IMG/VR virus record: IMGVR_UViG_3300047567_000058
Location: 16,405 to 80,404 of that record
From: a virus
Lineage: Duplodnaviria > Heunggongvirae > Uroviricota > Caudoviricetes
Reading direction: 5' to 3' (one strand)
Length of the DNA: 64,000 nt
Both the position numbers and the translations under genes were made by a program. Below, in pieces: positions 9,580 through 30,269 of this stretch; positions within the stretch are counted from its first letter, which is position 1; each line of letters opens with the position of its first letter. The notes under the pieces are model-generated. The model did no database searches and was not told the DNA's origin. It saw only the letters and a program-made list of their open reading frames with translations.

Positions 9580-9586
9580 TATGGCA

Positions 9587-9888
9587 TCACTTCTTTTCAG
9601 ACTCGCCTTTAGACGGCAGAGTTTTTCCGATGCTGTCTGACAGTTTCTGCAGCGACTGCTGACAGTCTTTGATCATAATGTCTTTGTATTTGCTTGGCGT
9701 ATTCTCATCGAGCGCAACTGAAAGCATATCCGAGCATATCTTAAGAACGCTGAGGATGCTCTTGGAGTATTCTTCCGGTCCGCTTTTGACAGAATGTAAA
9801 ACTTTGCGTATTGCTCAAGCATTAGATGCTGGCTGTCGATTGTGGCTTCCAGCTCATGGATCTTCTTGTCTTTGTCGTAATCTGACAC
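9587..9888 (-). CDS. hypothetical protein, GTG start after RBS aaaggag; the reading frame changes by -1 at an A4 run near 9784-9787
   Basis: N-terminal MSDYDKDKKIHELEATIDSQHLMLEQYAKFYILSK runs in one frame. Protein-like ...PEEYSKSILSVLKICSDMLSVALDENTPSKYKDIMIKDCQQSLQKLSDSIGKTLPSKGESEKK* continues in the adjacent frame. Confidence 0.35.
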
Positions 9889-10450
9889 TTTTATTTACTC
9901 CTTTCTGAAAAAAGGCAAAGCACGGATTAGATCAGTGCCCTTTCTTTCAACAAGATCATATATCCGCTATCTTGCATTTGACTAGACGGAAGCCGTATGG
10001 TAAAGTCTTATTGCAGGGATTGCTTGGCTAGGGTTTGATTTCTAGCGGGCTGACTTGCCGGCCGTGAACCTAAGACTTCTGGCATACGGCGGCCGTTAAA
10101 ACATGCGCTATACACGAAGGTAGCTTGCATGCTGCACAAATAGTCCAACTGCGTGATTCACGCCAGTGGCTGCGCTAAGTTGTCAAATTAGCATAGGATT
10201 TGTAGCATGCCTGATCATGCGCACAATGAGATCAGAGATCTAACGGGTATGGCCGAACTCTGAATCAGTCCGTATCAAACCGCTTTGCTTACGACAACTG
10301 CATAACAACGAGCCAGAAGCTGTATCCTATGCTGAATCCCCGGTCGTGAGCTGCATTCGTGCGGCATGGGGATCTTTTTTTTATTTTCCCCTGCTGGCAA
10401 AGGGGCCTCGAACAATAGATTATTGCAGACTAATTTGAGGCATCAAGATA

Positions 10451-13400
10451 ATGTTCGTATCACCGAGTAAGATGAAGTTGGATCGTATCCTTCTAGGGCG
10501 CACGATCAATTTCGACACAGAGAGAAAGATGTACGGAAATCTTGTGGTTCTGGCCACGGATTCTTATGACGACATAGCTTCGGTGATGACTCAATATGCT
10601 GTTTAGGCCTCAGCAGCTTTACTGCATGTACACGCCTCGTGTGGTCCGCCCTTTAAACAGAAAGATCGTTCGCGAGGATCAAGCTGCCGTTTATGCCTCG
10701 CTCAGAGACAAAAGCTCCGGTAGATTAAAAATTGGAAAGCCATTTGTCACATCGTATGCCGAGAAAAATCTGGTGTACGATATGATTCCTGATTTCAAAG
10801 AAACCCTTGCTCTTCGTGAAAACAAGCAGGGATTTGCAAGGTATATCGCGATGAAGGACTTCCTGGAAGAGTTCCTTCCTGAAGCTGTTTCCTCAGTAGG
10901 ATATCAGAAGAATTATTTGATTTTCCCTATTTGCGACTATTCTGACAAACTCGGATCAGTCGCCAAAATGGGATTGTTTGACACAAGCGTTGAAGGACGT
11001 GACCCCTATGTCATTATTCCTTCTTACGCTCAGAAAAGGCCTTGCCGATATGTCCGTCTATAAGATGTTCGACAGGATCATCTTCTATAATCCTAACAAC
11101 GAGGCTGTCGTGGTCATGGATCCGTCAGATCCGACTCTTGAGAAATCGATCAACGACTATCTCCTTAAGATATCGCGTCTCAATAACGCGAATATGGGAG
11201 AGGCCCTAGAAGGAGATGACGTCGATTCCGATGGATCTGATGAGGCTGATGACTCCGACAAGAGCGACGAAGCGAAGGAAAAAATAAAAAATTTCGTATT
11301 CACGTCAGTCTCTAAGTCACTTAAGATCAGAGCTCCTGAGACATTTGACGCCGCCACCAAAGACGAAGGAGACATCGCGGCTGTCGTCGATAAGAAGATC
11401 GACGGATATCTTTCCAAGAAAGAGAATGCCGGAAAGTCCTATGACGATCTAAAGACAACGATCGAAGCGGATCCCGATGTGAAAGCGGCTGCCATTAAGT
11501 ACGTCGAGACCAAGAAGAGCAACAGCCAAAAGCTCAATCAGCTTGCCAAGGGCCTTGAGAAAGAGGCCAAAGTCATAGATGATTTCGAAAAATCGTCTGC
11601 ATCCGATAAAGAAGAGCCGGAAGACAAATCGAAGCAAACTGCCGGAACCGCTGTAAAGCCATCGGTTCTGTCGGCTCTGAAATCCGCGGCGGCTGCGAAA
11701 TATGCCGCTAAAGACGATGATGAAAGCAAGGCTTCTCCTATAGCCGTCGATGCCGAGTCTCTCCTCGATGACAAGGAAATAGACGTCGATGTCGCCAACT
11801 TCGACAGCCGCGTTAGGCATAGCTCATTGATGGCGCTTGACGAAGACTATAACACCAAGCAGGCCAAGAAAGACCTGATGAGCATCCTCACCCATTTCTC
11901 AAACTCGCAGTTCCTTCCGATCGCGATGGACAGAATCAACATCGTTGACTCGAGCGATGACTTCAATAAGAAGATGACCCTTACGGCTCATTACAAAGCT
12001 GACGACGGATCGTCGCTTGGATTCACGCTCGACATCCCTGAGGTGATCGATGGCAGATTCATCTTCATCAACGGAAACAAGATGTTCATTCGAGAAGCAG
12101 CTTCTCCGTCTTCCTATCGTCAAGACCAAGCCAAACGTCGTCGAGATCTCGACATCATACAGCAAGATCACGGTTGAACGCACCAATGAGAAGGTTTCGC
12201 GCAGAAACGTCCGTCTTCTGAAGATGATCAAAACCGCCGAGCCTTCTGCCAAGGGATGGACTGTCCTTTGGGGAGACAATTCTGTCCATAACGACAGATA
12301 CGTCAGCGATTTCGAATATGAAGAGCTAGCGTCTAGCATCTCTTCGATTGACGCCCCGAGATACGATATCGACCTCGATCGTCAGCGCATCATGAGCAAG
12401 ATATCCGCGATGGACTTCCCAGACGGATTCTTCAAAGACGATTCGATGGACACCCCTATAGCGATCGAGAAGAACTCATCCAACGTCATTCACATCAAGC
12501 CTGACGGAGCTGTCTATCTGGCCATTCCGACTAAAGACGGAGGATCTATCGCGTCTGACAACAAAGCTGCCGATTGCATCCAGGCATTCGTTCTGGCTGC
12601 ATTGGGGCTGCAGAATGCGGATATCCCGTCTATCGGAAAGAGCTTCGTCTATTCGAGAGCCAAGATGATCGAGCAGTTCTATCCGATCTTCTCTCTGTGC
12701 GGATTCATGGAAGGAATCACCAGCGTTTTGAGAAGATACGGAGTCAAATACACGCTTTCAGACAAGCGCGACAGAACGCTTCTTTCCAATTACGTCGAGA
12801 TCCGTTTCAGGGATAAATATTTTTATTTCCTGGACAATCTCAAGAACACGATGCTTCTTAACGTCCTTCGCTTGATGGAGACCGACCAATACGACTTCAG
12901 AGACTTTGACACTGAGGATCCGTATGTCAATTTCTTCGTCAATGTCCTTGGCTACAACTCGTATGCCAGAAACACCATCAAGCTTCATCTGTCGGCGATG
13001 GTCGATCCCTATTACCTACGACGTTCAGAAAGATCTTAAGCAGCCTACGGATATCGTCGGGATGCTCTTATTCGCCAACACGCTTCTGACGACCAATACC
13101 CTGCCGATCGCTAAACGACGCCAAGAAACTACCGCATCAGAGGAAACGAAGAGATATACGCTGTTCTGTACAAAGTCCTTGCCGACGCATACAAGAACTA
13201 TCAGAACGGCCGCCTTAATGGGCACAGAGGAGGGCTTGATCTTCCTAAGAACGCCCTCATCAAGGCCCTGACCAACCAGGTAAACGTCAATCCGGCAAGC
13301 GTATTGAACCCGGTGCTTGAGCTTGAAAGCCTTTCAAACTGCACGCAAAGGATTCAACGGCGTCAACCTGGACAAGGCGTACACCATGAAGATGCGCGCT

Positions 13401-14792
13401 TATGATCCTAGCATGATCGGATTCCTGTCAGGAAACGACACTCAGTTCGGCGGAACGGCCGGAATGAGCCGATCGATTTCATATGATCCTAAGATCTCGA
13501 CGATCCGCGGATACATCCCAGACGTCGATAAGAGCAGTCTGTCGGCTACGAACATCCTAAGCCCTGCCGAGATGCTGGCATCGTTCGTGTCGGCTCAGTC
13601 GGATGCGCCTCGCTCAGCGATGCAGATTTCGCAGACTAAGCACACGATGCCCGTCGTCAAAGCCCATAAGCAGCTTGTCGGATCAGGAATAAATAAGACG
13701 ATGGCGTTCATGATATCCGATGACTTCTGCTTCAAAGCCAAGAAGAACGGAGTAATCAAGACAATCGACACCAATAAGCACATCGCCATTCTGGCATATG
13801 ACGATGGGACGAACGACGCGATCGATCTCGGCGACGTTCTCGTTAAGAACTCGAACAGCGGATTCTTCATCAAAGAGCACTTCCTCATCAAATACAGCCA
13901 AGGCGAGAGATTCAATAAAGGCGACGTCATTGCCTACAACCCGTCTTATTTCAGCGGAAAGGGAAAGGACATCGATTATATGCCTGGAACGCTTGCCAAG
14001 GTTGCGCTTGCCGCATCGGATGGCGCGTTTGAGGACTCGACGATGGTCGATGAGACTCTGTCAAACGAATGCGCGTCTTACTTCACGATGATGACATCTG
14101 TGGCGCTTGGCCCCAATGCGACGATCTACAGCACGGTTCATGCCGGAGACAAGGTTGAATCTGAGGATACCCTTCTGGAATACTCCAAGAGCTATCTCGA
14201 TCCATCGACTGCCGAATACATGAACAACATGAAAGATGTCTTGGGCGCCAATGCCGTGAACGAGATATCACGCGATAAGATCCTTTCTAGATACTCCGGA
14301 AGCGTCGTTTCTGTGAAGGTGTATTACAATATGCCTTTGGCTGAGCTCAGCCCGACCCTCAGAAAGCTCATATCGGAATACAAAGGCATCCAGCTTGACA
14401 GATCTGAGTTCCTCACCAAATACAACGTCCCTCATGGCGGAAGCGTGCATATAGACACGACCAACCAGATGGGAACCGACAGCTCAGGAAAGTCCAAGGT
14501 CAACGGAAGCCAGTATCAAGGCGTTCTCATCGAATACTACGTTGAGATACTCGACCCGATCGGCCCTGGAGACAAGATCACTTACACGAGCGCTCTCAAG
14601 GGAGTCGTGTCTAAGGTGTTTGCCGCAGGAGAATCTCCTACGTCGGAATATCATAGCGAGCTTCCATGCAACGCAGTATGCACTCCTACAGGAATATTAG
14701 GACGCATGACATCTGACTTCTTCTCATACCTCTACTCGAACAAAGTACTCGTTGAGCTAGGGCGGATGATAAAAGCCATCTGGGACTACTGA
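10451..14792 (+). CDS. homologue of multisubunit RNA polymerase beta subunit (RpoB-like, about 1440 aa), broken into at least 7 frame segments by single-base indels
   Basis: GRFIFINGNKMFI...QLLRLPIV matches the beta motif GTFIINGxERVIVSQLHRSPGV. SDAPRSAMQISQTKHTMPV matches NMQRQAVPL. PGDKITYTSALKGVVSKV matches the GDKxAGRHGNKGVVSK active-site region. Segments: 10451-10606, 10596-11063, 10978-12177, 12050-13039, about 13040-13112, about 13115-13330, 13317-14792. Confidence 0.65.
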
Positions 14793-14803
14793 CACTAAAA
14801 AGA

Positions 14804-14840
14804 CCGGCGCTCAATCGCCGGCCTTTATTTTATTTTTTCC
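14804..14840 (+). terminator. intrinsic terminator (ccggcg-ctcaat-cgccgg, then cctttattttattttttcc)
   Basis: 6-bp GC stem plus a T-rich tail carrying the ATTTTCC motif, directly after the rpoB-like stop. Confidence 0.65.
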
Positions 14841-15243
14841 ACAGGTACACGGCGCTTCCAGCTCCGTATATGGACGGATAGCCTTTGTACTCTTCGTACT
14901 TTGACGGGTCTCTGTCGATGACCCTTCCGTCTGGGAGGATCACCCATTTGTTTGGCTTTGTCACGCCGACGAGATTCATTCCGATGGCTTTGTATCCTTT
15001 GCCGTCGAACATATTGAGGTCGCAGTATGACAGCACGGACTCCGGGCTGTTGTCTTTGACGAAATGCGAGAACAGCCTGGACACGCCTCCGACGACGAGG
15101 TTATTCGATCCTGGGCATCCTCTGATGATCTCCCATTGGGCCAGATGGCTGTATCTTGGCTTTCCGAAGCTCATCAGCTGAAGAAGCTCTCCTGATTTGG
15201 AGAACAGCCCATAAGTGATTTTGGCATAGACATATCCTTGCAT
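14830..15243 (-). CDS. GIY-YIG homing endonuclease-like protein (137 aa)
   Basis: GYVYAKITYGLF (GIY...YIG), RYSHL (Arg), AQWEII (Glu) and GSNN (Asn) at canonical spacing. Start at M11 of the track ORF. Confidence 0.5.
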   Translation of the reverse strand: MQGYVYAKITYGLFSKSGELLQLMSFGKPRYSHLAQWEIIRGCPGSNNLVVGGVSRLFSHFVKDNSPESVLSYCDLNMFDGKGYKAIGMNLVGVTKPNKWVILPDGRVIDRDPSKYEEYKGYPSIYGAGSAVYLWKK

Positions 15244-15367
15244 GTGGTTGCTCTCGCAGAATGGCCTGCTCACGCTTTCCGGGATCGTCTTGATGACGCA
15301 GTCTCTCGCATATACGCGATTGAAGTTAAGGCCTAAGAACAGTTTTACGACTGAGATGATTATCGGC

Positions 15368-16330
15368 TTAAGGGACGGGATTCTCCCATTGGAATTCGTA
15401 GATGTGAATCAGATGGATTCCGTTCTTCTCGGCATCGAGGACTTTGCGCTGATGATACTCTTTGTCATCCTTCTTGAGATCGGAATGCCAATACGTCCCG
15501 TTGTATTCGATCCCAAGATGCCTGTCTGGGACGTAGATGTCTATCTCGCGCCCATCGCCAAGAAGATCGCGTCTGTTGCGATCGACTTTGAATCCGAGCG
15601 ACTCTATCAGATCGGCTATTTCCTTCTCGGCGAAAGACGTTTCCTTGTCGCAGTCAAGCAGATCGAACAAGCCGTACTTGTGGATCATTATGAAGAATCC
15701 GGTTCTTGACTCGTATCCGAGCTCGTCCATGAGATGCTTGCTGGTGCGGTCTGATTGCGATTCTATGAAAGCGGACATCGCTTCCTTTGATTGCGTGGCT
15801 GATTTGCCGATGTCTGTGAGATCTCTCGACTGAATGACAGGCGTTCCGTATTTGGCGTCGCTCGTCTTGGAGATTTTATTTTTTATTTCCGGAGACGCCA
15901 GGACGCATGCCGATCCGTACTTCTCCAGGTTCGTCTTGTTGGCTTTGGCCTTTATGACTTTGTTCATCATCGGCATGGCATAGCCATATCTGACTAGATT
16001 GGTCTTCTTGCGCTTAGCGACGACTTCCTTGTTCTTGTTGGGGGAGCTGAAGCCGTATCTCTCGACGTTGGTTTTGGCGGATTTGTCCTGGATCGATTTC
16101 AGCCTAAAGACGTTGTCGACGCCGTACTTGGCTTTGACAGCTTCCTTGCTTCTGGCGATCCTCTCGTCTTCGGAGATGGGTTTGAGATATTCCTTAAGCC
16201 CGTATTTGGCGCTGATGGTGCGCATGGATTGCTTTGAGAATCCGTAATGCGCCATCACGTCTGTCCTGGTGGCTGAGTTTTCAGTTATCCATCGGATCAT
16301 CTCGTCTTTGTCTGGCCATGTCTTTCGCAT
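15368..16330 (-). CDS. free-standing homing-endonuclease-like protein: N-terminal tandem KYG/RYG repeats plus a C-terminal DUF559-type PD-(D/E)xK nuclease domain
   Basis: Five repeats (AKYGVDNVF, NVERYGFSSP, NLVRYGYAMP, NLEKYGSACV, DAKYGTPVIQ). C-terminal EIDIYVPDRHLGIEYNGTYWHSD...LIHIYEF. ATG at M4 with RBS aggag. Confidence 0.5.
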   Translation of the reverse strand: MRKTWPDKDEMIRWITENSATRTDVMAHYGFSKQSMRTISAKYGLKEYLKPISEDERIARSKEAVKAKYGVDNVFRLKSIQDKSAKTNVERYGFSSPNKNKEVVAKRKKTNLVRYGYAMPMMNKVIKAKANKTNLEKYGSACVLASPEIKNKISKTSDAKYGTPVIQSRDLTDIGKSATQSKEAMSAFIESQSDRTSKHLMDELGYESRTGFFIMIHKYGLFDLLDCDKETSFAEKEIADLIESLGFKVDRNRRDLLGDGREIDIYVPDRHLGIEYNGTYWHSDLKKDDKEYHQRKVLDAEKNGIHLIHIYEFQWENPVP

Positions 16331-16411
16331 GATTATCACTCCTACAGGAATATGATACGCCTGCGACGGCGCATAAGCAAAGAAAACAGATCTGTCTTCA
16401 GACCTGTTTTG

Positions 16412-16888
16412 CTAGTGGGATTCTTGTTCTTCAGGAGGCTTAGGGAACTGCTGATCTACATAATCTTCATGCCCTGATTTTATGTATTTGACAGCTTGAC
16501 TGGCCTGGATTCCGCTTAGCCAAGGATAATGCAAGGCAACGGTTGTCTGAATGGCCTCATCGTCTTTGGATTGTTCGTCTTGCGCTGCGGCAGCTTTCCG
16601 CTTAGCTTCGGCAATAGCTATTTGCTTAGCTTTGTACTCTTGCATTTGCTTAACTCTTTTGGCATGCTCGATCTTAGCGCGCTCTGTATCGGTCATGAAC
16701 AGATTTTCAATCAATGAGTTAGGTTTGGCTTCCGCGATAACGCTTTCTTCGATGTCGAATCCATCGCCTGATTCGGTATAAGGAATCCCTTCTTCGCAAA
16801 GGATGTCTGCCGCTGTCATTGAATAGACGTCATAGGCTGTGTTTTGCTCAGCCGCTTCAAGAATGGCTTTCTCGGTTATATGGACCAT
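16412..16888 (-). CDS. hypothetical protein (158 aa)
   Basis: ORF track. Confidence 0.5.
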   Translation of the reverse strand: MVHITEKAILEAAEQNTAYDVYSMTAADILCEEGIPYTESGDGFDIEESVIAEAKPNSLIENLFMTDTERAKIEHAKRVKQMQEYKAKQIAIAEAKRKAAAAQDEQSKDDEAIQTTVALHYPWLSGIQASQAVKYIKSGHEDYVDQQFPKPPEEQESH

Positions 16889-16917
16889 ATAATCATTTGT
16901 TCCGGTTCGCGTCTCTC

Positions 16918-16953
16918 GGGAAAAAATAAAAAAGATCCGTGATTTGCGGATCT
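16918..16953 (-). terminator. intrinsic terminator: hairpin agatccg-tgatttg-cggatct then T6AT7CCC on the minus strand
   Basis: Perfect 7-bp stem; the T-run is the recurrent element. Confidence 0.7.
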
Positions 16954-16965
16954 TTATGGCGTCTA

Positions 16966-17448
16966 TCAGGCTTGGTTGCCGCTATTGTGGCCGCCGCCAT
17001 TCGTCTGATTTGGCATTCCCCAATCGTCATCGTCGTCTGGGAATCCATCGGCGTCTGAATCTCCGTCATCGTCGTCATCTTTGTCATCATCGTCTTTTCC
17101 GCCGTCTCCAGAGGATCCTTTGCTGACGACTTTCTTGATCATCAGCAGATCTGATGCGCTGGTGATGTCGGTGATGAATGACGGAGCCGCCACCCAATGG
17201 GCTCCCATGACGGCCACTCCGGCCCAATACAGCGCCGGAACCTGCCATGCGTTGACCCAGATGGCGATCCCGAATCCGAGGATGACTCCGGTCCAAGCCA
17301 GAAGGAACGACAATCCGACGATCCCTTTGATAAGGAATCTGGCCCCGTACATAGCCGCGGTGTCAGAGATTATGCCCCAAGGCAGCTTGATCGAATTAGA
17401 CTGATCGTCTCCGTCATCGTCTGAGTTGCTTCCTAAATTGAAATCCAT
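16966..17448 (-). CDS. membrane protein (2-3 TM) with acidic Asp-rich termini
   Basis: ORF track; hydrophobic core; RBS gaaagga. Confidence 0.5.
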   Translation of the reverse strand: MDFNLGSNSDDDGDDQSNSIKLPWGIISDTAAMYGARFLIKGIVGLSFLLAWTGVILGFGIAIWVNAWQVPALYWAGVAVMGAHWVAAPSFITDITSASDLLMIKKVVSKGSSGDGGKDDDDKDDDDDGDSDADGFPDDDDDWGMPNQTNGGGHNSGNQA

Positions 17449-17459
17449 GGATGTCCTTT

Positions 17460-17780
17460 CTAATCCGAAACGGGTTCGCTGGCGCGCCTGGAGATCTCTG
17501 AGTCGATCTCCGTCTTCTTGCTGATGATGTACTTGCGGTCTTCCGGCGTCGTGACGACTCTGTAGAACGCATCGAGCTCTTTGCCTAAGCGGCTGAGCAT
17601 CGACGTCGGCGTGTTGGTGAGCTTCGACAGATCGCGCTCGACGTGGTATTTGGAATCCCAGACCTTGCCTTGCTCGGTCTTGTGGGCCAGGAATTCGCGA
17701 ACCTCTGACGTGTCATGGAGTTTCTTCATGACGACTTTCTGGGAATCCTCCATGATCTCCCATTTGCTTTTGTGTTCCAT
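17460..17780 (-). CDS. hypothetical protein (106 aa)
   Basis: ORF track. Confidence 0.45.
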   Translation of the reverse strand: MEHKSKWEIMEDSQKVVMKKLHDTSEVREFLAHKTEQGKVWDSKYHVERDLSKLTNTPTSMLSRLGKELDAFYRVVTTPEDRKYIISKKTEIDSEISRRASEPVSD

Positions 17781-19516: not shown

Positions 19517-19552
19517 GTAAAAATTATATCACAAGCTCTCTGCAAAGCAATC

Positions 19553-21340
19553 CTATTTTCTAGAGTTGTACTGATATTCCCGCAGATCCGCAGCCAATTT
19601 GACGTTTTTGTCGATGTTGCAGATCTTGCGGAGGTCGGGAGATGGGATGCCGTCATCCCCGTCTGAGATGGAGATCACCGCATCGATCTTGACTTTGGAG
19701 CAGAGATTGTTGTAATAGATCTCCGAGATGTATTTGTACAGCTCCTTGTCGTAGCATTTGATTTTGAGGCTAGGCGCCGAATCGAGCGTGAACGTCCTCG
19801 ATCTGCGGTCGAATCCTCCGCTGACGATATTGCCTTCGGTGTACAGCTCAGGGAATTTGAATCCCTTGCCATACGGGGCGAAGTCGAGATAGGCTTTCAT
19901 GGCTTCCGATCCGGTGGACATGGACACGACCGTTTCCTCGGATTTCGGGAGATTGACGGAAAGCATTGCCCTGATTGCGGCCGTTCTGAAAGCCGGGACT
20001 TTTTGCTTGGGCACGGATCCGCCAAGCGCTTCGCTGTGGCCTCCGAATTCCATGTTGAGCTCAGGATGGTCTTTGGACAGATCCATCAGGAAATCGTATA
20101 GAGGGAATCCGTTGATGCTTCGTCCGGAAAATTTTATTTTTCCCGTATGGCCGTCGTCGATTCCGACGAGGGCGGGCTTGCCTTCGTCCTCGGCTATCTG
20201 CGACGCGACGAGGCCGGCCATCCCGGAATAGTTCATCGTGTCGGATCCTGGGAGGACGACGATCGCGATCTTGTCTCCGTTCGGATGGTATTGCTTCAGC
20301 AGATCCTTCTTGCATTGCTTGCGGAGGTTGTTGATCTCGACGTATTTTGATCCGAGATCCTCGGATGGCTCGTTTCCGTCGAGTATCTTGACGATGTCTG
20401 ACACCAGCTTGGTCGGGTCTCCGAGGATGCGGTTGACCGCATTGACGACCGGGATCAGCGAGAACTGCAGACCAGACACGGTGTATCTGCGAAGGATCCC
20501 GCTGTCTGACGGGAAGCGGTAGTATCCCATCATCCTGGCCAGTCTGTTCGAGAACGTCTTCGGATCGTTCTCTTCTGAGTTGAGGTAATCCAGGGCGGCT
20601 TTGACGAGGATTCTGTTCTCGCCGATCATCTGCATCGAGTCCGACATCACGGTTATGGCTGCCATCGCGGCCATGTCTTTCAGCTGCGAATCAGCGAATC
20701 CTTTGTCAAGGAGAAGCTGGCGGCATAGCTTGAACGCCGCGGTAGCTCCGCTGATCTCGGTGAATTTTGATCCGTCGCAGAAAGGGTCGCAGACGAGATC
20801 GGCCGGGATCGGTCCTTGCGAGATATGGTGGTCGGTTACGATCGCTATCGCGTCATGCTCCTTGGCGAAGGCGATCTCGTCTTTGCAGGTTATTCCATTG
20901 TCCACGGTGATGATCGCGTTGGCCCCTTTGGAAAGGGCTTCGGTGACGTGCTTTACGGACATGCCGTATCCGTCGACGAATCTGTTCGGGGTTATGAAAT
21001 CGCATTTGATTCCGGCCAATCTCAGTGATTTGGCCACGATGGCGGTCGCCATGATTCCGTCGCAGTCGTAATCCCCGATCACGCAGAAATGGCGCGATTT
21101 GTTCTTGAGGACCATGTCCGAGAAATCATGCTGGCCAGGCATAGGCTCCATGATCTTCATCCATTCTTCTAGCTCGTAATGCATCTTGGTGTCTGGTAGG
21201 GACGAGAAAAAGGAATCAGCCGTGATCCCGTTCATGCTCATTAGGGCCGATGCGTATGCCCCAAGTCCGTCGATCTTAGGAAAGTCTGAAGGATTCTTGA
21301 TTTGCATTTTGATTGCGTAAGAATCAATGTCGCTATTCAT
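19553..21340 (-). CDS. recJ: RecJ-like single-strand DNA exonuclease (DHH/DHHA1 family), 595 aa
   Basis: CVIGDYDCDGIMA, ITVDNGI, VTDHH motifs. C-terminal DHHA1-like GGH. Confidence 0.7.
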   Translation of the reverse strand: MNSDIDSYAIKMQIKNPSDFPKIDGLGAYASALMSMNGITADSFFSSLPDTKMHYELEEWMKIMEPMPGQHDFSDMVLKNKSRHFCVIGDYDCDGIMATAIVAKSLRLAGIKCDFITPNRFVDGYGMSVKHVTEALSKGANAIITVDNGITCKDEIAFAKEHDAIAIVTDHHISQGPIPADLVCDPFCDGSKFTEISGATAAFKLCRQLLLDKGFADSQLKDMAAMAAITVMSDSMQMIGENRILVKAALDYLNSEENDPKTFSNRLARMMGYYRFPSDSGILRRYTVSGLQFSLIPVVNAVNRILGDPTKLVSDIVKILDGNEPSEDLGSKYVEINNLRKQCKKDLLKQYHPNGDKIAIVVLPGSDTMNYSGMAGLVASQIAEDEGKPALVGIDDGHTGKIKFSGRSINGFPLYDFLMDLSKDHPELNMEFGGHSEALGGSVPKQKVPAFRTAAIRAMLSVNLPKSEETVVSMSTGSEAMKAYLDFAPYGKGFKFPELYTEGNIVSGGFDRRSRTFTLDSAPSLKIKCYDKELYKYISEIYYNNLCSKVKIDAVISISDGDDGIPSPDLRKICNIDKNVKLAADLREYQYNSRK

Positions 21341-21392
21341 ATTTGCGTTTTTCTTACGACATAAGGATACATCTTGCCGATGCCCCGTTCAA

Positions 21393-21430
21393 GGAAAATA
21401 AAAAAAAGATCCCCGGATTGCCGAGGATCT
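21393..21430 (-). terminator. intrinsic terminator: hairpin agatcctcggcaatccggggatct then T8ATTTTCC (minus strand)
   Basis: Perfect stem; canonical U-tract. Confidence 0.75.
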
Positions 21431-21445
21431 TAGGCGAGGCTTCGA

Positions 21446-22189
21446 TCAGAGATACTTCTGAAGGACGCTGATCGAGCGCTGATATTGAAGCAGCTCAGCC
21501 GTGCTGAGGCCGGGATGCTTCTCGAGGTAGACGCTCTTGCGGTACGTCCCGTACTTGGTGAGATGCGCCAGGGTCTTGATATCGACTTTGGCGTACTTGA
21601 TGTAGTTGAAGATCGTCTTGTAGGAGTAGATCTCCTTGCCGGCGTCCTTGCCGCTCTTGATCGTGCGATAGCCATAGATGCGCCCGCTGACAGACAGCGT
21701 TCTGATCATGGTGTACAGCTGCGAATAGCAGAGATTGTGCTTCTCGATGAACGGGCGGAGATGGATTCCGGTGAAGAGCCATTCGCGCATGATCTCCCTC
21801 GCTTCGCTGATGGTGAGCTTCCGCACTTTGTAATACGGGGCGTTGATGACCTTGCCGGTCAGATTAGTGACGTGCTTGACCGGATCAAGCAATTTGGTCC
21901 TGCGGCGGTCGATCATGCCGTATTGGAAGAAGTTGTTGACGGCGCGTTTGCGCATCTTGCTGTCGGCGTAGTCGTAGATGCCGGTGGCTTTTGCCGCTCT
22001 GCGGATGAGCTCGTCGGTGACGTGCTTCTCTTTAGAGTCGACGATGGCGACCACCATCTTGAGGAGATAGATCTCTTTGTTGGATTCATATTCGTCCTTT
22101 GTCGGGATTTGAGGCAGCGCGTTGATCTTTGAGACGACGCTTGCCGGTAAGTTGGTGCTTCCGATGTTGTCGATTTGCATAGGATTCAT
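21446..22189 (-). CDS. hypothetical protein (247 aa)
   Basis: ORF track; RBS aaaggag. Confidence 0.5.
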   Translation of the reverse strand: MNPMQIDNIGSTNLPASVVSKINALPQIPTKDEYESNKEIYLLKMVVAIVDSKEKHVTDELIRRAAKATGIYDYADSKMRKRAVNNFFQYGMIDRRRTKLLDPVKHVTNLTGKVINAPYYKVRKLTISEAREIMREWLFTGIHLRPFIEKHNLCYSQLYTMIRTLSVSGRIYGYRTIKSGKDAGKEIYSYKTIFNYIKYAKVDIKTLAHLTKYGTYRKSVYLEKHPGLSTAELLQYQRSISVLQKYL

Positions 22190-22249
22190 TGCTCCTTTCT
22201 TATGCTACTGAAATGATATCACCGTCTATTCTAAAAGAAAAGACAAATA

Positions 22250-22903
22250 TCACACTTTTCTCTGCAGGCTGTCCGAGTCCAGCTCAGCCTGGTCGGCGTT
22301 CGTGCTGATGCCGCATTTGATCATCAGAGACATCACGTCGGAAATCGGCTCTTTGAGAATGTATACGACTTTTTCGGATCCGCCGTTTCCGGAGATGATG
22401 ATGCTGCCTTCAGTGGCCATTTTCATCATTGCCTGGTCATCTACCGGGGATACGGTGGGCGATCCGCCTCCCAGCATGCTGGCAAGACGGCTGCACGCCG
22501 AATTCCTGTATGACGACGTGGTATATGACCAGTTTTGCGATTGGTTGTATGCCGTTTGATAGTTCTCTATCTTAGACTGGTAATCGCGAATTTCGTTTGC
22601 TTTGAAAATGAGAGCCGGCTCGATGCTGACGATGCTGTCCGTGTTGATGGCGACTTTGCCTATGGACACCTGCAATTGCTTGGATGACGTGCCGGACATG
22701 GATGAGCGGTCATGCGCGTGCATGACGCCGAATCCGTCGGCTGAGTTAATCTCAACCATGCATGGAAGCATCGAAGAATCCATGTCATCGGTTCCTCCAT
22801 ATGACCCATTAAGATTGCATGAGCACAGCTTTGAAATGCGCTCGTTGGTTCGTTGCACGTCAGCCATCGTTCTGATGGCGAGAGGATTGAAGTAAAAGAG
22901 CAT
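22250..22903 (-). CDS. hypothetical protein (217 aa)
   Basis: Start at M14 of the track ORF, after RBS agaaagaaggga. Confidence 0.45.
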   Translation of the reverse strand: MLFYFNPLAIRTMADVQRTNERISKLCSCNLNGSYGGTDDMDSSMLPCMVEINSADGFGVMHAHDRSSMSGTSSKQLQVSIGKVAINTDSIVSIEPALIFKANEIRDYQSKIENYQTAYNQSQNWSYTTSSYRNSACSRLASMLGGGSPTVSPVDDQAMMKMATEGSIIISGNGGSEKVVYILKEPISDVMSLMIKCGISTNADQAELDSDSLQRKV

Positions 22904-23035
22904 GTTGTCCCTTCTTTCTACGGGAATACGATACAATGGCAAAGGCCCGTTTTCAAGGAAAATAAAAAAATAAATCCAAGAATCGCCAATCCAGCAACAA
23001 TTGATTATCAGTATTTACAAGAGGATTACGGCAAT

Positions 23036-23984
23036 ATGGTCACACTCAGCGAAGACGCATTGAAGAGTTACATGATGAGCGAGGGGCTTGACCCATCGTT
23101 CTTAACCGTCGAAGATTACCTTCTGATGGAAGGGGTCTCTTTCAGCAAGCAGTTCAATCAGGCCAACGGCGCCAGCGCATACACGCTTGACGAATCGAAG
23201 GGAAACGGCAAAGCCATCGCGCTCGGAATCGCCGGGGCAGGACTTGCGGCAACGGGACTCGTCGGCGGAGCCGTCAACAACGTCAAGGCCAAGGACGAAT
23301 ACGTCAATAGAACCGAGACGTCAAACGTCGGCCGTCAGCTTGAGAAAGGCGAGACGAAGCCTTCCGACATCAAATCAGACGACGGAACCAAGACCCGCCG
23401 TATTCACCAATCCTGTCACCAAGGGAACCGTCAGGTCCGTCATGGATTCAGATCTTACAACGACGAGATCCAACGATTACGGCCAAACCACGTACACGGT
23501 TCCTATCGCTGGGACCAAGAGCGACAACCCGTATTCCACCGAGACGCAGCTCACCAACGTGAAGGCCATCGTCAAAAACGCGCAGAATGAGCTTGACGCG
23601 GCCGAGAAAGCCAAAGAGGAAGAGCATAAGAAGATCGGCACGCCTGATACCTCCGACGAGAAGATCGCATATGTCGACAAAAACGTTGAGAACGCATCAA
23701 GCAAGCTCGACAAAGCCAACAAATGGATGTATGGCGAGAGGCCGGACGGAACCGCCGGGACCGAGAAGGACAATGACGGGATGAACGGCTTGTACACCAC
23801 CGTCAAGAACATCAGCTCGACCGGATACGGCAAAGAGACCAAGGCGAAGTATGACACCAAGAACGCGATCGGCCATACGATGGAAGTCGGAGGGGCCGTC
23901 GCCGGGCTTGGTCTTGGGGCAGCCGCGGCCGTCGCGAAAGCGAGAGCCAACAAGCGAAAGAAGCAGATATCCGATCTCAAATAA
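23036..23984 (+). CDS. hypothetical Gly/Ala-rich, probably membrane-associated protein; one frame change (+1, extra C in accc) near 23394
   Basis: ATG at 23036 after RBS gagga. The N-terminal part reads in the frame of track ORF 22853..23590 and the C-terminal part in the frame of 23187..23984; both parts are protein-like. Confidence 0.4.
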
Positions 23985-23992
23985 CCATTGAA

Positions 23993-24019
23993 AAGAGCCA
24001 TCCTCGACGGATGGCTCTT
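23993..24019. terminator. bidirectional hairpin terminator (aagagccat-cctcgacgg-atggctctt)
   Basis: Perfect 9-bp inverted repeat between convergent genes. Confidence 0.65.
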
Positions 24020-24022
24020 CTT

Positions 24023-24154
24023 TCAGTCTTTCTGGACTTCGGGGTCCGGGCTCATCGCCAGATCCATGGCGTCCTCGAATTCCTGCGGGTCGATCGTGGG
24101 ATCCTGAGATTCCGCTTCCTGGCCCATCGACTTCAGCTTGTCTTGGTCGTTCAT
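24023..24154 (-). CDS. possible small acidic protein (43 aa); its ATG overlaps the nrdD stop (ATGA)
   Basis: MNDQDKLKSMGQEAESQDPTIDPQEFEDAMDLAMSPDPEVQKD*. Confidence 0.2.
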   Translation of the reverse strand: MNDQDKLKSMGQEAESQDPTIDPQEFEDAMDLAMSPDPEVQKD

Positions 24155-27100
24155 AATCGATTCCTCACGCGTTGGAGCGCGATTTTATCCATCCGGCGAT
24201 CTCCGAGGCGTTTCTGTAGACGTCGAAACGAGGCCCCATCCGGGACGATCATCGTCGGGGCGGCGGTGATGCCGAACGCGTTGACCTGGTCGAGATGCGT
24301 CGACGCGTCGATGTTGTCGTACTTGATCCCGGCTTTGTCGAGCAGCATCTTCGCCATCTTGCAGTTCGGGCACGTCGGGTTGGTGAACAGCATCAGATGA
24401 TCGACTTTGGGCGCCTCGGCGGAAATATTTTTATTTTCCAGGGAGCAGGCGTTGCATCCGTCATGGACTTCCTCTTTCGAGGAATCGTATTCCTTGCGGT
24501 CATGGAACTCCTGCATCTTGCCGGCGTTCCAGTTCTTGAGCGGGCGGTAGTATCCGGTGATGCGGCTGTAGACCTCGGTCTCCTTGCCGCAGATCGGGCA
24601 CTTCCATTTCTCGCCGACGATGTAGCCGTGGTCGGGGCAGATGGAATAGGTCGGCGACATGGTGAAGTACGGCAGCTTGTAGTTCTCCGCGATCTTGCGG
24701 ACGAGCCTCATGCACGAATGCCAGTCGGGCAGACGCTGCCCGAGGAAGGCGTGGAAGACGGTACCGGAGGTGTATAGGGTCTGGAAGCGGTCCTCGACGT
24801 CAAGCGCGCTGAACATGTCGTCGGTGTATCCGACGGGGAGGTGCGAGCTGTTGGTGTAGTAAGGCGTCTCGCCGGATTTGCCGGCGGTGATGATGTCGGG
24901 ATACATTTCCTTGTCGTGCTTGGCGAGGCGGAAGCAGTTGTGCACCAGCACCGCGTCGTCAACGCCGCCGCTGATGAAGAAGTTGTGGTTGCCTTCGACT
25001 TCGAGATCGTAGACGTCTTCCCTCTCGGTGAGGTATTCGATCTTGACGATCTGATGGTTTGGAAGCAGGCCGGCATGCTTCAGGCGCGATTTGACGAGCG
25101 AGTAAGTGTAAGGCTCTCCGAGCTCTTTGGCGATTTCGCCGATGCTCTTGTTTTCCTTCCACTTGGCGATTATGGCGTCAGTCGAGCATTCAGGCATGTA
25201 TCTCGAATACTGCTCGAAGCTCTTTTTCTTATTCCCTTCAGACATCTTTCTGCGGGTGTCTTCGGATGCCATGTTCTCAAGGAACTTAGGATACCATTCG
25301 TCTTTGGTTTCCCTCTTCGTCTCGGAAATAAGCTCTTTTGATTTTTCGGTGTGATGCTTGCCGAAGAATGGGTTGGCGGAGCCGTCTACGCATCTTACAA
25401 AATTACGGCCTTCGTCATGCTCATGCAGCCGGCGGTGATCGGCATCCGACATTATCTCAAGGTTGTCTTTGGCGTTGTTGGTCTTGTCGAAATCCTTATG
25501 ATGGACTACGAATCCGTCTGGGATCTTGCCATAGTAATATTCAGCTAGAAGACGATGCATCGGGAAAGATCCTTTATTTTTGCCAAGTACGCATTCGACA
25601 TTGCGATACGTTTCTCCATATGCTTTAGAATTCTTAGTATAAACATGGCACGCGAATAATCTGTCTCCGACTTTTAAGGATCCGGCTTCGACGTAATCGA
25701 TCCAGCATTTGCGACTGGGACCGCATCCGGTGACGAACCGCTTCGCCATCTTATGGTTAGGCGTGACTTTGACGCTGTCGCCCATTGGAGAAGGTGATCT
25801 TCATCACTTCGGCGTCTTTCTTCGTCTTCCAGCAGTCGACGAGCTTCTTGAACTCGACTGAGTTGGTTTCGGCGTTGAATGACATGATGCCGATATTTTT
25901 ATTTTTATCGGCGATGATATCGTTGACGGTCATACGGCCTTTATCAGTCCAAACATTGGTGTCTCCTGAAACGCACGTTGACTCCGCCGGCGTCGCTTCA
26001 AGGTTGAAAAGTGTCGATGGATACTGGACTTGGTAGTCAGATAGCCGGTTGCGCATGTGATTGAGGACCTCGACGGTGAAGTCCTGGGCGTCCTTGTGCG
26101 TGAGGTCGTCTTTCAGCCATTTGGCGTTGAGACAGGCTTCGTTCATGCCGACGAGGCCGATCGTCGAGAAATGGTTCTTGAACGCGGTTTCGCCCAGATA
26201 GCGCTTGGTGTACGGATAGAGGCCACGGTTATAGAGGTCGGTGATTGTTCTTGCGCTTGATCTCAAGCGAGCGGGCGGCGATGTCCATCATGTGGTCGAG
26301 CCGGGCGTAGAAGTCGTCTTTGTCGGCGGCGAGGTAGCCGATGCGCGGCATGTTGATGGTGACGACGCCCGATACTGCCAGTGGATTCTCCGGCTCCGAA
26401 GAACCCGCCGTTGCGCTTGCGCAGTTCGCGAAGATCGAGGCGAAGACGACAGTTGTGAGTCATGAGACCTGATGCCAAAGCGAAAACATGATCGTCGCTG
26501 TCTATCTCCAAGCAGTAAAGAAAATCACTTGATGCGTCATTGGTTTTCTCTATCGACACTATCTTGTAATAATTGTAGGAATCGTCTTGATCGAAAAGCT
26601 CGCCATAGCGCTCGCGATCCGGGAAGTCAATTCTGTAATTCGGCTTGTCGGATAAGCGACTTTCTCTGTTGTCGACGTAGTTTGACAAAGCTTTGTGCCC
26701 CATGGATGCCAAAAGTTTCATCACATCGTTTTTCATCGTTTCCGATGAAGTGTATATCCTCTTTTTCTCCTTCGACCCATCGCTGGCTCTCAAACCCGAT
26801 ATGAATCCTTCTTTGAATTCGTTCGAAGCATTGAAACAACGATTGGAAAGCTTCTTCGTCAAAGCATCGCCATCGATGTATTCCGACACAATGGCGAACG
26901 GGTTCTTATCGACTCTGACATATTCCACTTTTTCGGAAACCGTCGTTTTCACCGGATAGCCTACTCTGTTCCAGAAAGCCGTGAGGCGCGAAACCGTGTC
27001 TTGATCGACATCGACATTAAGAGAATAAACAACTGCTCCTTCGTCGTGACTTCCGTCTCCTGCGTAAGCACCTATCGCAAAACCGAGGTCGGAATCACCG

Positions 27101-29969
27101 AGCCTTTCCGTCTCAATCGGGGTCTTGTTGAAAGGAAGCCAGTCGCCGACTTCGAGATCGCTCGCTTTCAACGTTCCTCTATCCTTTGTCGGCTGAAGAT
27201 GGTTTTCGCCCATTTTGACGGTCGTTCCGTTCGAAAGGACGATTTTGAAAACCGGTGTCATCGGCATCTGAACCGGATGGCCTGACACCCATTTATGCCC
27301 ATTCCAGAAAAGATAGTTCGTTTTCTTGAGATTGTATCCATCATAAAGAGTTCCTATCTTTCTGACGACGATTCCATCACGCGAGTTTTTGACGAGAATC
27401 TCGGTGTCTGACGTCAAAGGGCACATACTCCTGCAATCTTGAGGATTCATCGAACTATTTATGTAGTTTGAGAAATACGGGATGCCGTATTTGGCCGCCA
27501 TCTCAAACAGCAAACGGTTGTTCTCGGTATCGGACCAGTCGAAGCCTTTGGTGATGGAGTAAGTCGGAATCGGGTATTGGAAGCCGCGCCCATTGGCATC
27601 GCCTTCGATCATCGTTTCGATGAAGGCCTTGTTGACCATGTCGGCTTCTTTTCTGGCATTCGCCATACGTGAAGTCCTGCATCTTGCCTCCGACAACGGC
27701 AGGCAGGTTCTTCAGATCGTCAGGAACGACCCAGTCGAGCGTGACGTTCGTGAATGGCGCTTGGCATTGTCCTGAAATGAAAACGCATCCGTTCTTTCTG
27801 AAAATGGCTGTTCCGGCGTCGTCGTTCGGACACCATACAAGACCGTCATATTGAATGGCTTCCCTATGTTTTGGCTGGATGTTTTTGACGTCATGAACGC
27901 GGACGTAGTTCGCTTTACTCGTCTTTTTCTTGAAACTCAAAAATCCGGCTCTCAATGCTATTTCTTGAAGCCTGTCCGCTATTTCGTCATTGTCGTACTG
28001 AAGTTTGAATTTTTCGAAATCTCCGTCGAAACTCGACCACGTTCTAAGGAACAGCTCCGATTGCCTTCTGCTCATTTTGACGAACTTGTCATCAATGGCT
28101 TTTTTGGTTCCGCCAACGAGTTCGAAAATCTTTCTTGCTGAGTCACCGAAGAAGACGTATTTATTTACTGGAGTATCAAACCCGCCTTTTACTTCGCAAA
28201 GCGAAAAAGCTAGAGAAAGCGAATTTGCCACATTTGCGATGTCGGCGTTTCCTGGCCTTTTCGGAGATTTGTATATCGTTATTTTGTGAATCGATCCGTT
28301 TCTTACGTCTATGCTTCCATCGGTATAGACCATCGCCGCCAGTTTTATCTCGTCATCGCTCAGCCCGCATTCAGGCAAATCGTTGCCCGAAAAAGATGCT
28401 GGGAGGTAATAAGAAGTCTTGACACTGAAAATGTCAGACGAATGTTTGATTTCGTATTCGTTCAAATTGAATTTTTTGACAAGAATACGGTGCTCAGGTG
28501 TGACGGTTTGCTCGTATCCGGCTCCAAGATAGCGGTGCATCTCGCCTTTGTACGGTTTCACGACGACTTCGTTGACCTTTTTGGTCGTCAGCGTCCCATT
28601 GTCCCAAACGTAAATGTCATCGCCTTTTTTAAGCTGATCGTATTTCTTCCATCCACCGGTCGACAGCACTTCGGTGTCCGTGTCGACACAGCCCCATCTG
28701 GACGGGGTGTTGACACCGAAGATGAAGCTCTGAATGGCTTGCTTAACTTCTTTGTATGACAGATTGTCCTTCTTGACGAACGGGGCCAGGTACGTGTCAA
28801 AGCTCGAGAACGCCTGAGCACCCGACCATTCATTTTGTAGGCAATTTCTCGCACAGATACTGGTGTCTGATGATTCCGAATCGGTTACGAAGAATGCGTG
28901 AAAATCGTTATGGACGGTTCCGCAATAAACATCGGATGTCTGATTGATAATTCTCTTAGATACGATTTTCATACACTCTCCGGTGTCTTTGCAAGTGAAT
29001 TTGTACACGTACATAACCTTTGAGTTGTATTGAAGGACGTCGTCGTCTTCGGTTAAATCCTGCGCCTCAACCCATCCACGGTTAAGCGTATAGAATTTAT
29101 GGTCAAGAGTGCATTTGATCTTATGGCCGTCTTCGGTCGTGAGCTCAATGAGCTGACTAACGGTTCTCGTCTTATGCAAGTTATCCATCTTCGACGCGAC
29201 GTATTTGCCGGTGTTGGGATCGAATGACCTGACCATGAATTCTGTCTTTCCTGAATCGAGCATCTCGCGGATGCTGTGATTAGTCCCATCGGCGAACACG
29301 ATTCTGGTATCGTCGGTGAAGCAGCCCAAGAAATTGACCATCTGGTTGCAGAGAGTCGAAAGATGGCTAGCCGGGGTAGACGCGATCTTGCCCGGGACTC
29401 CGCCGAGGCCTTCGTTGATCAACTGCTTGAGCGACCAGCCTGCGCAATAACCGTTCAATAAGCTAAGGTCATGCAGGTGAAGATCCGCGTTTCTGTGCGC
29501 GTCGGCGATTTCCTTGTCGTAGATGTCGTTGAGCCAATAGTTGGCAGTGACCGCTCCGTTGTTCGAGAGCACGAGCCCTCCGAGCGAGAAGTTGACGGTT
29601 GCGTTTTCCTTGACGCGCCAGTCGTTCTGGCCGAGGTAGTCGTCGACGAGCTTCCCGTAGTTCAGCCCGTTTCTCATCTGGGCGTGCTTCTCGCGGTATC
29701 TGGCGTATGCCAAAGCGGTCTGCTTGTGGCCCGTGTCGATGAGCGCGAGCTCGACCCCGTCCTGGATGTCTTCGATCCCGACGGAATTATTTTTTTATTT
29801 TCCCGGAGAACTCGTCCAGGGCCTTCTCGGCGACGATGCTGGCGTTCTTCTCGCCTTCCGCGTCATGGGTCTCCTGGCAGGCGCGCGCAATGGCGCGTTC
29901 GATCTTCTTGATATCGAAATCCTCGACGCTATCGTCTCTTTTGACTACTTTCAGCTCGGCTGTTTCCAT
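24151..29969 (-). CDS. nrdD: anaerobic (class III) ribonucleoside-triphosphate reductase NrdD with N-terminal ATP cone, four inteins and a fused C-terminal glutaredoxin-like domain
   Basis: ATP cone (VVKRDDSVEDFDIKKIERAI). NrdD core blocks (LYNRGLYPYTKRYLG, NHFSTIGLVGMNEA, TGSIGVVTINMPRIG). Glycyl-radical C-terminus RITGYYRP with a CPICG zinc ribbon, then a CPNC thioredoxin-fold domain. The reading frame passes through track ORFs 29787-29969, 27503-29713, 26263-27696, about 26270-26370, 25757-26266 and 24151-25785. Confidence 0.85.
24937..25975 (-). mobile_element. nrdD intein 4: about 330 aa with an HNH homing endonuclease
   Basis: Starts CVSGDTNVWTD. Block B is GDSVKVTPNH. HNH motif HHKDFDKTNNAKDNLEIMSDADHRRLH. 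Block F is DVYDLEVEGNHNFFISGG. Ends AVLVHN, followed by Cys. Confidence 0.6.
26452..27423 (-). mobile_element. nrdD intein 3: about 324 aa with a LAGLIDADG homing endonuclease
   Basis: Starts CPLTSDTEILV. GFAIGAYAGDGSH and EGFISGLRASDGS match LAGLIDADG. Block F is FLYCLEIDSDDHVFALASG. Ends LMTHN, followed by Cys. Confidence 0.6.
27767..28690 (-). mobile_element. nrdD intein 2: about 308 aa with a LAGLIDADG-type homing-endonuclease domain
   Basis: Starts CVDTDTEVL. LAAMVYTDGSI and LRAGFLSF match LAGLIDADG. Ends ...NGCVFISGQ (C-terminal Gln), followed by Cys. Confidence 0.5.
28844..29323 (-). mobile_element. nrdD intein 1: mini-intein of about 160 aa with no endonuclease domain
   Basis: Starts CFTDDTRIVFADG. 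Block F is DVYCGTVHNDFHAFFV. Ends ...SICARN, followed by extein Cys. Confidence 0.55.
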
Positions 29970-30269
29970 GTGGTGTTAACCTTCCTCTAAAAAAATGGTG
30001 TAATGCTTTGTTCGGGGCCGGATCGGTTTATATCCAAGACGGTTTCTTCTTCGAGAATCGTCCTCTTATGCGAAAAAAAATATTTTCCAGAAGCCCTTCC
30101 CAAAAAAAGAAACGCATGCATGATATTGTCATTCAGGCGCTCCTTTCTTTTGCGCGGACTCATCATAAACCACGGCGGGGAGATAGTCAAGAAAACGATT
30201 GGCGGATATGACCGTACCAACCGCTTCTTCACCGCTTTGGCTTAGACGACAATGGCGCATGAGAAGATA

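Follow-up and report, generated by a model that had tools for sequence, protein, structure and literature searches.

The reading frames of the window

The window, the whole stretch of 64,000 nucleotides that was analysed, was compared with 33 loci on about 28 other contigs of the same jumbo phage, whose genome is about 219 kb long, and matches them at 99.8-99.99% identity. Among the sources of these loci are JGI assemblies of Illumina type and assemblies that Logan made from other runs, and each indel was positioned by aligning the window base by base with as many as 12 assemblies. The window carries 19 single-base indels, from position 6133 to 29989, which affect six genes and one intergenic site. 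Sixteen of them are private to the window, and the remaining three (9774, 15372 and 27649) are common to the window and the long-read sister contig Ga0527076_0053, a contig of 219,229 bp from the same strain. The affected genes, two patches of indels and a stretch used as internal control are the following:

5315-6254, plus strand: hypothetical gene, intact length 312 aa; C4>C5 at 6133 shifts the frame of its tail
9587-9888, minus strand: hypothetical gene, intact length 100 aa; C3>C2 at 9774 splits it
10451-14792, plus strand: jumbo-phage RNA polymerase beta-like gene, 1445 aa when intact, here with 8 private indels and 3 private substitutions
10593-13349: patch 1 indels, +A 10593, +G 10995, +T 12089, +C 13007, +C 13099, +C 13121, -G 13345, -G 13349
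11195, 12349 and 12952: private substitutions of patch 1, within its 2.76 kb
14830-16330, minus strand: DUF7487/restriction-endonuclease-like gene, intact length 499 aa; G2>G3 at 15372 splits it
22853-23984, plus strand: hypothetical gene, intact length 376 aa; C2>C3 at 23394 breaks its frame
24165-29969, minus strand: nrdD, anaerobic ribonucleotide reductase, 1932 aa when intact, here with 6 indels
23394-29989: patch 2 indels (6.6 kb), given on the plus strand, +C 23394, +A 24226, +C 25781, +C 26250, +C 26368, +T 27649 (also in the sister contig), +T 29790, +A 29989
29990-63271: indel-free control stretch, 33 kb with no private indel, internal control for clustering

The RNA polymerase beta-like protein matches bacterial RpoB (E 1e-8), is about 36% identical to the AR9/PBS1 RNAP beta subunit and is probably essential. 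Intact versions of 1445 and 1419 aa (P0059, P0060) are found on 14 other contigs, and at each site of patch 1 all 12 of the other assemblies differ from the window. When the intact N-terminal beta-like protein from a relative at 40% identity is used as tblastn query, the matches in the gene run through the frames in the order 2>3>1>2>(3,1)>2>3. Stop-codon reassignment was considered and rejected, as the breaks are by homology true frame changes and not in-frame stops. A search of the C-terminal beta-like piece against viral contigs found no relatives, and megablast of the 9.5-30 kb region against cultured and deposited phages gave no match.

The intact NrdD combines an ATP-cone with four in-frame inteins, which belong to the HNH and LAGLIDADG types, and has a glutaredoxin-like domain at its C-terminus (Pfam). 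Reverting the nrdD indels yields one ORF, and the 1932-aa gene is uninterrupted in L007, L015 and L017. On the nrdD coding strand the +T at 29790 corresponds to a change from A6 to A7, and the +A at 29989 falls in an A-run of the upstream intergenic region; patch 2 extends past nrdD at both ends, into this spacer on one side and into the adjacent gene on the other. The 24226 indel rewrites the last 20 or so codons of nrdD. At 26249/26250 there are three readings, TTCTT in the window, T3 in the sister contig and T4 in every other assembly, a disagreement that is best read as noisy data rather than as two independent mutations.

Undoing all 19 indels restores every ORF. The proteins encoded by the other assemblies are the 1445-aa beta-like protein, the 1932-aa NrdD and products of 499, 376, 312 and 100 aa, and in the covering short-read assemblies the RNAP beta-like gene, nrdD and the smaller genes are all intact. 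In a protein cluster look-up, frameshift fragments were found solely on the window's own contig of 219,300 bp; for the 15372 allele, common to the window and the sister contig only, the look-up of its 137-aa fragment returned the sister contig alone. Exact-product look-ups of fragments specific to the window (P0001 and pieces of 320 and 370 aa) returned no record. Scans of a metagenome contig collection for window alleles gave no match either, in a collection that does not contain these samples, since it also failed to return a pattern known from Ga0527076_0053. The 9774 allele is present in the sister contig and also in the PacBio-run contig L035, with at least 2x k-mer support in SRR19542531.

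A preliminary description of this DNA had listed about 13 indels. The frame breaks it pointed to are real, but six of the 19 indels were missed and two sites were misplaced. The five corrections proposed for nrdD fall within 5 nt of 29790, 27649, 26368, 26250 and 25781, with 24226 and, upstream of the gene, the intergenic 29989 indel overlooked; the site at 23394 was placed correctly. At least six corrections had been expected in the beta-like gene, where the breaks were confirmed and eight indels are present, but the supposed site at 11034-11037 was wrong: CAGAAAAG at 11031 does not vary among the assemblies (12 of 12), the actual indel being G>GG at 10995, so that the idea of two sites sharing the CAGAAAAG context fails. 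Gene 9587-9888 is indeed broken, by C3>C2 at 9774 and not in the A4 at 9784. The indels are also not confined to four genes, as had been thought, but lie in six genes and one intergenic site within 6.1-30.0 kb, those at 6133 and 15372 having escaped notice; the long ORFs described as uninterrupted are intact.

Distribution and spectrum of the indels

At all 16 private sites every other covering assembly (3 to 12 per site) has the in-frame allele, and the other assemblies have zero length variation at any of them. The private changes of the window amount to 16 indels against 4 substitutions, whereas natural variation across the assemblies amounts to 2 indel polymorphisms against 36 substitution sites. 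The neighbouring base is duplicated in 13 of the 14 private insertions (P 2e-4), and 8 of the 14 insert a C on the plus strand, a bias that was counted against the error explanation. The preliminary placing of all indels in short homopolymers holds only loosely, as most affected runs go from one base to two or from two to three and one case is a C inserted inside T4. Runs of 1-5 bases hold 14 of the 16 private sites. A long-homopolymer bias was rejected, with 2 of the 42 runs of at least 6 bases in the window affected, and so was a systematic error linked to methylation or to a motif, given that there is no common motif and that 33 kb of the same genome are clean.

The concentration of the indels, which had been suspected from the beginning, is far beyond chance: eight lie within 2.76 kb (P ~2e-5) and none past 29989 (P ~6e-6). 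Between 15.4 and 23.4 kb there are likewise zero indels. The changes are indifferent to coding status, with one at the intergenic position 29989, eight in the RNAP beta-like gene and six unrelated genes affected. Elsewhere, private indels occur once each in Ga0455824_0209 and Ga0527076_0053 and in none of the other assemblies, so that only few-contig assemblies of long-read style carry them. As a separate observation, a genuine A7/A8 length polymorphism exists among the assemblies at 7995, unrelated to the private sites.

Probable sequencing platform of the source contig

The k-mer contigs that are identical to the window derive from a single project's PacBio CCS runs. L035 (SRR19542531) is 100% identical to window positions 7766-10593 and ends at the last base common to both 10593 alleles; L020 (SRR19542532) ends likewise at 29990, the branch base of indel 29989. 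Exact k-mer contig ends were observed at these two indel sites (10593 and 29989). The two runs are PacBio Sequel II CCS data of 111k-260k reads with 6-10 kb inserts, obtained from an anaerobic dairy-manure bioreactor, and their assembly at JGI used metaFlye and GCpp (PMC9387265). Since Logan drops k-mers that are seen once (PMC12424806), the contig breaks at 10593 and 29990 would point to read disagreement or less than 2x support there. The Logan contigs from those PacBio runs are short, implying about 2x coverage. For the contig of the window we infer an origin from these PacBio reads, or from sister reads, with locally low coverage. As accuracy is the rule for CCS reads, the error density of about 0.4% in patch 1 would imply unusually poor or low-pass reads, a point against the error explanation.

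Probable assembly error and alternative explanations

The indels are private, clustered in patches and of an abnormal mutation spectrum. Because more than 20 independent assemblies of the same phage have the genes intact, nearly all of the frame breaks are taken to be single-base assembly errors, and it is very likely that the indels are consensus errors in a low-coverage PacBio CCS/metaFlye assembly and not frameshifted genes. Sequencing error concentrated by locus or coverage was one of the options of the preliminary description and is the one that the evidence favours; the comparison of orthologous loci that it proposed proved to be the decisive check, revealing in-frame genes elsewhere. 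The source contig probably goes back to PacBio CCS reads at low coverage, from the microbiome of an anaerobic dairy-manure bioreactor. A region with only one or two reads, and imperfect ones, would take their typical errors into the consensus, namely single-base insertions that duplicate a neighbouring base, along with a few deletions and substitutions. With a read length of 6-10 kb, such errors would come in read-sized patches, of 2.8 kb in the beta-like gene and 6.6 kb over the nrdD region, and the location of patch 1 in the RNAP beta-like gene would be a matter of chance. Judged from the compared sequences, the genes appear to be intact in the phage itself, and frameshifting, slippage or decay would be unnecessary to explain what is read in the window.

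The indels at 9774, 15372 and 27649 may stem from shared reads, from systematic error or from real strain alleles. It seems unlikely that these three are real alleles of the bioreactor strain or, more boldly, that a frameshifted, defective sub-population exists beside the intact phage. If the three were real, nrdD with its four inteins would be inactivated in the circulating lineage, and the endonuclease-like gene and the small gene would be broken; that one lineage had lost nrdD would count as a modest result.

Less probable still is that the indels are real mutations and that the long reads sampled a part of the phage population that is defective or in decay, in which the beta-like gene and nrdD would be pseudogenes. 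Such a population would account for the recurrence of three indels in a second long-read contig and for the at least 2x support of the 9774 allele in a PacBio run, and two co-existing alleles would also break contigs at 10593 and 29990. However, the 16 private indels are on one contig only and the same-strain sister, two substitutions away, is without them; as the two contigs differ outside these indels by 2 substitutions and 1 indel in 46.5 kb, neutral decay had no time. The indel to substitution ratio of 16:4 inverts the natural 2:36, eight indels in one polymerase gene without matching substitutions are unlike pseudogene decay, one indel is intergenic, and the differing sister alleles at 26249/26250 point to noise. 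The pseudogenes or phase-variable states that had been tied to inteins or homing endonuclease genes are not supported for the 16 private indels, which are absent from all other assemblies including the sister and of which one is intergenic and others fall in genes that lack both inteins and homing endonucleases.

Programmed recoding or phase variation, through ribosomal frameshifting, transcriptional slippage (for example at the A7 after the ATP-cone) or homopolymer contingency switching, is very improbable. A programmed shift site must be conserved, and all other assemblies are in frame at the 16 private sites. The indels at 29790 and 29989 do lie in A6/A7 runs, and the genuine A7/A8 polymorphism at 7995 could be cited in the same sense, but the slippage suggested earlier for the A7 run is refuted by the A6, in frame, that 6 of the 6 other assemblies covering 29790 have. 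The affected runs are mostly of 1-3 bases, in differing contexts and with no common slippery motif, and CAGAAAAG at 11031, being invariant, is not an indel site at all. Distant relatives (40-50% identity) read uninterrupted through these positions, and a long tract with length variation among assemblies, as in phase variation, is seen only in the unrelated run at 7995 and at none of the private sites. The marking of the frame changes by mobile insertions (introns, inteins or homing endonuclease genes), which the four inteins of nrdD, the group I intron in the beta-like gene of distant relatives and the homing endonuclease genes of the AR9 and PBS1 beta genes might bring to mind, can hardly be credited and is refuted by the gaps of only 1 nt against the other assemblies, the inteins being in frame and present in all assemblies and an Rfam search of the window finding no intron.

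With assembly error as the preferred reading, the case serves chiefly as a warning: frameshifts that cluster in striking genes of a long-read metagenome contig, here a multi-intein nrdD and a phage RNA polymerase subunit, can mimic recoding, phase variation and pseudogenisation, and independent assemblies of the same genome settle the question of error without the reads. The annotation of the contig should list a 1445-aa beta-like protein and a 1932-aa NrdD instead of about ten fragments.

Comparison with known systems

The beta-like gene of the window is a homologue of the split RNAP beta genes of jumbo phages (AR9/PBS1, phiKZ-like), which are associated with introns and homing endonuclease genes; in relatives at about 50% identity the gene is split by a group I intron at '...NLD'. 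In this phage, in contrast, it is one continuous 1445-aa ORF, and the apparent splits are 1-nt indels at unrelated positions.

Programmed frameshifting and slippage in phages are exemplified by the -1 frameshifts of the tail-chaperone genes G/GT and by slippage on A-runs. The 29790 site resembles the latter as an A-run at a domain boundary, where slippage would give a short ATP-cone-only product; it is, however, not conserved, and the sites are without a shared slippery heptamer or stimulatory context.

That indel errors fragment genes in genome assemblies made from long reads has been described, for example in the work on Kastor (PMC12007338) and Polypolish (PMC8812927). The indels of the window are alike in being single-base run-length changes that create frameshifts and apparent pseudogenes, and they are likewise absent from short-read assemblies of the same genome. 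They differ in being strongly patchy at the scale of read length and mostly in runs of 1-3 bases, and the probable platform is PacBio CCS, not Nanopore. The read-scale patches together with the short runs suggest local metagenome coverage by one to two reads rather than a systematic homopolymer bias.

Gene content and interrupted reading frames

The window, part of a 219,300-bp JGI metagenome contig, belongs by its gene content to a jumbo phage. It encodes a family-B DNA polymerase, a topoisomerase I, a ClpB-like ATPase with ClpP, a P-type ATPase and a RecJ-like DHH protein. Its multisubunit-RNAP beta-like gene has weak similarity to bacterial RpoB (E 1e-8), and the RNAP beta subunits of the Bacillus jumbo phages AR9 and PBS1 are ~36% identical to its product. 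In ~50%-identity relatives this gene is interrupted after '...G(I/V)NLD', equivalent to window position ~13373, where the window phage has no intron and the gene is unbroken. In the relative L001 a group I intron (Rfam RF00028, 82 bits) forms the insert, at 9721-9969 between ORFs 6963-9710 and 10001-11416, and the 1.24 kb insert in the relative L002 (8760-10000) carries a 345-aa zinc-finger/Vsr-like endonuclease ORF. The intein density of the anaerobic ribonucleotide reductase gene is unusually high:

24165-29969, minus strand: nrdD, 1932 aa, with an ATP-cone, four in-frame inteins (one mini-intein or unclassified, one LAGLIDADG-like, one HNH with NUMOD3, one large unclassified) and a fused C-terminal glutaredoxin/thioredoxin-like domain

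The frame-breaking indels claimed in the preliminary description were confirmed, with corrections: minus-strand frame breaks recur in nrdD, and a tblastn search showed successive frame changes through 10451-13351, the query being the 915-aa N-terminal beta-like protein that a 40%-identical relative has intact. The comparison with orthologous loci proposed there was made base by base against 33 loci on ~28 further contigs of this phage (99.8-99.99% identical), which cover the window apart from 1-451, 24796-25224 and 63272-64000; the ORF is unbroken through 24796-25224. It gave in-frame alleles elsewhere and an exact list of 16 single-base indels private to the window among the compared assemblies, with three more found also in the sister contig Ga0527076_0053 (219,229 bp) only.

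Single-base indels of the window (positions on the window, bases on the plus strand)
6133, +, private, C4 to C5
10593, +, private, A1 to A2
10995, +, private, G1 to G2
12089, +, private, T1 to T2
13007 and 13099, +, private, C2 to C3 each
13121, +, private, C1 to C2
13345, +, private, G2 to G1
13349, +, private, G3 to G2
23394, +, private, C2 to C3
24226, +, private, A2 to A3
25781 and 26368, +, private, C2 to C3 each
26250, +, private, C inserted within T4
29790, +, private, T6 to T7 (A6 to A7 on the coding strand)
29989, +, private, A6 to A7, in the nrdD upstream spacer
9774, +, shared, C3 to C2
15372, +, shared, G2 to G3
27649, +, shared, T3 to T4

The five nrdD sites first described, and that at 23394, were placed correctly, and the list is extended by 6133, 15372, 24226 and 29989. 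The beta-like gene is indeed multiply interrupted, by eight indels rather than six; the site CAGAAAAG at 11031-11037, thought to hold one of them, is invariant across all assemblies, the true change being at 10995. The small gene is likewise interrupted, at 9774 instead of 9784. With all 19 indels reverted, each affected gene is again one ORF, of 1445 aa (beta-like), 1932 aa (NrdD), 499, 376, 312 and 100 aa, as called in the other assemblies.

Assembly error as the probable explanation

Several independent lines converge in pointing to the private indels as assembly errors, so that sequencing error concentrated by locus or coverage, one of the explanations first considered, is now favoured. 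At all 16 private sites, every other assembly covering the site has the in-frame allele. The sister contig belongs to the same strain, shares rare SNPs with the window and over 46.5 kb otherwise differs from it by two substitutions and one indel, yet it lacks all 16, which leaves no evolutionary time for their accumulation. The private changes comprise 16 indels against 4 substitutions (3 of these within 10593-13349), whereas genuine variation among assemblies comprises 36 substitution sites against 2 indel polymorphisms: a run of A7 or A8 at 7995 and, near 49750, a 3-nt indel that keeps the frame. Private indels are confined to assemblies whose contig numbering suggests few contigs, as is typical of long reads: apart from the window, there is one in Ga0455824_0209 and one in Ga0527076_0053, and none in other assemblies. 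The sister contig has T3 at 26249/26250, where the window has TTCTT and all others T4; two differing states within one strain indicate noisy data.

The inserted base copies its neighbour in 13 of 14 private insertions (P 2e-4). It is C on the plus strand in eight of them, and both private deletions remove G, a base and strand bias that may reflect an error mode of one read strand. In Ga0455824_0209, a private C3 to C4 change (L003 ~19528-19553, window 20141) divides the RecJ-like DHH gene into pieces of 177 and 415 aa, so that a second assembly shows an artefact of this kind.

The concentration first described exceeds chance: eight of the 16 private indels lie inside 2.76 kb (P about 2e-5), and none occurs in the 33 kb past 29989 (P about 6e-6). 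It is regional rather than gene-bound, since the second patch, 6.6 kb at 23394-29989, reaches from the adjoining 376-aa gene past the nrdD start into the intergenic spacer; between 15.4 and 23.4 kb the window has no private indel. Only 2 of 42 runs of at least 6 bases in the window are affected, so place, not sequence, determines where the indels fall.

Long-read contigs and a proposed mechanism

Contigs from PacBio runs break exactly at two of these indels. An exact match to the 71-aa product that the split small gene encodes led to the Logan contig L035 (run SRR19542531), which has 100.000% identity to window 7766-10593 and stops on the final base that the two alleles of the indel at 10593 share; L020 (run SRR19542532) stops likewise at 29990, adjoining the indel at 29989. 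The runs are PacBio Sequel II CCS libraries of 111,000-260,000 reads with 6-10 kb inserts from a dairy-manure-hydrolysate bioreactor; JGI used metaFlye v2.8.1 for their assembly and GCpp for polishing (PMC9387265). In building its 31-mer graphs, Logan drops k-mers seen once (PMC12424806); contigs that stop at indel bases therefore mean that reads disagree there or that neither allele reaches 2x. Logan contigs from the PacBio runs are short (2.8-8.9 kb), implying only about twofold phage coverage. The private indels are patchy and artefact-like, and at two of the sites the project's long-read data appear thin and discordant.

The window contig would have been built from these CCS reads or sister CCS reads. 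Where one or two poor, low-pass reads covered a stretch, their errors would become the consensus, leaving patches that do not exceed the length of a read (2.8 and 6.6 kb, with inserts of 6-10 kb). The second patch may coincide with nrdD because the gene, at 5.8 kb, is about the length of one read.

Alternative explanations and natural variation

True pseudogenisation in a phage sub-population is very improbable: it conflicts with the spectrum of 16 indels to 4 substitutions and with the intact sister contig, and one indel is intergenic. Phase variation, also raised in the preliminary description, would require tract length to vary among assemblies, and it is constant among the others at the private sites. 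Programmed frameshifting, or the slippage first considered for the A7 run, would require a conserved out-of-frame state, whereas all other assemblies are in frame, including A6 at 29790. Introns and inteins are excluded as the cause, the gaps against other assemblies being only 1 nt. The three shared indels may represent real strain alleles, or errors introduced through reads common to both contigs; SRR19542531 supports the 9774 allele at 2x or more, and that at 15372 is otherwise on record in the sister contig only.

Unlike the private indels, the A-run at 7989-7995, with which gene 7592-8005 ends at its 3' side, seems to vary genuinely in length: A7 is present in the window and 5 further contigs, Illumina-type assemblies included, and A8 in 7 contigs, and the run length decides which C-terminus a 135/139-aa protein has. 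The in-frame 3-nt indel at 49749-49758 in gene 48979-50604 (DUF2828/DUF7788; 540-aa or 541-aa proteins) is common to many assemblies and is real variation. At 38003-38852, L017 is just 93.6% identical to the window, with multiple indels between flanks of >99.9% identity, and several k-mer contigs terminate at 38041, a pattern suggesting a cassette that has diverged locally or been exchanged within the population.

That long-read assemblies contain indels which fragment genes is well documented (e.g. PMC12007338, PMC8812927). The window indels are an instance of this known kind, with no new biological feature, and stand out from the described cases only by their read-scale patchiness and the short runs in which they lie.
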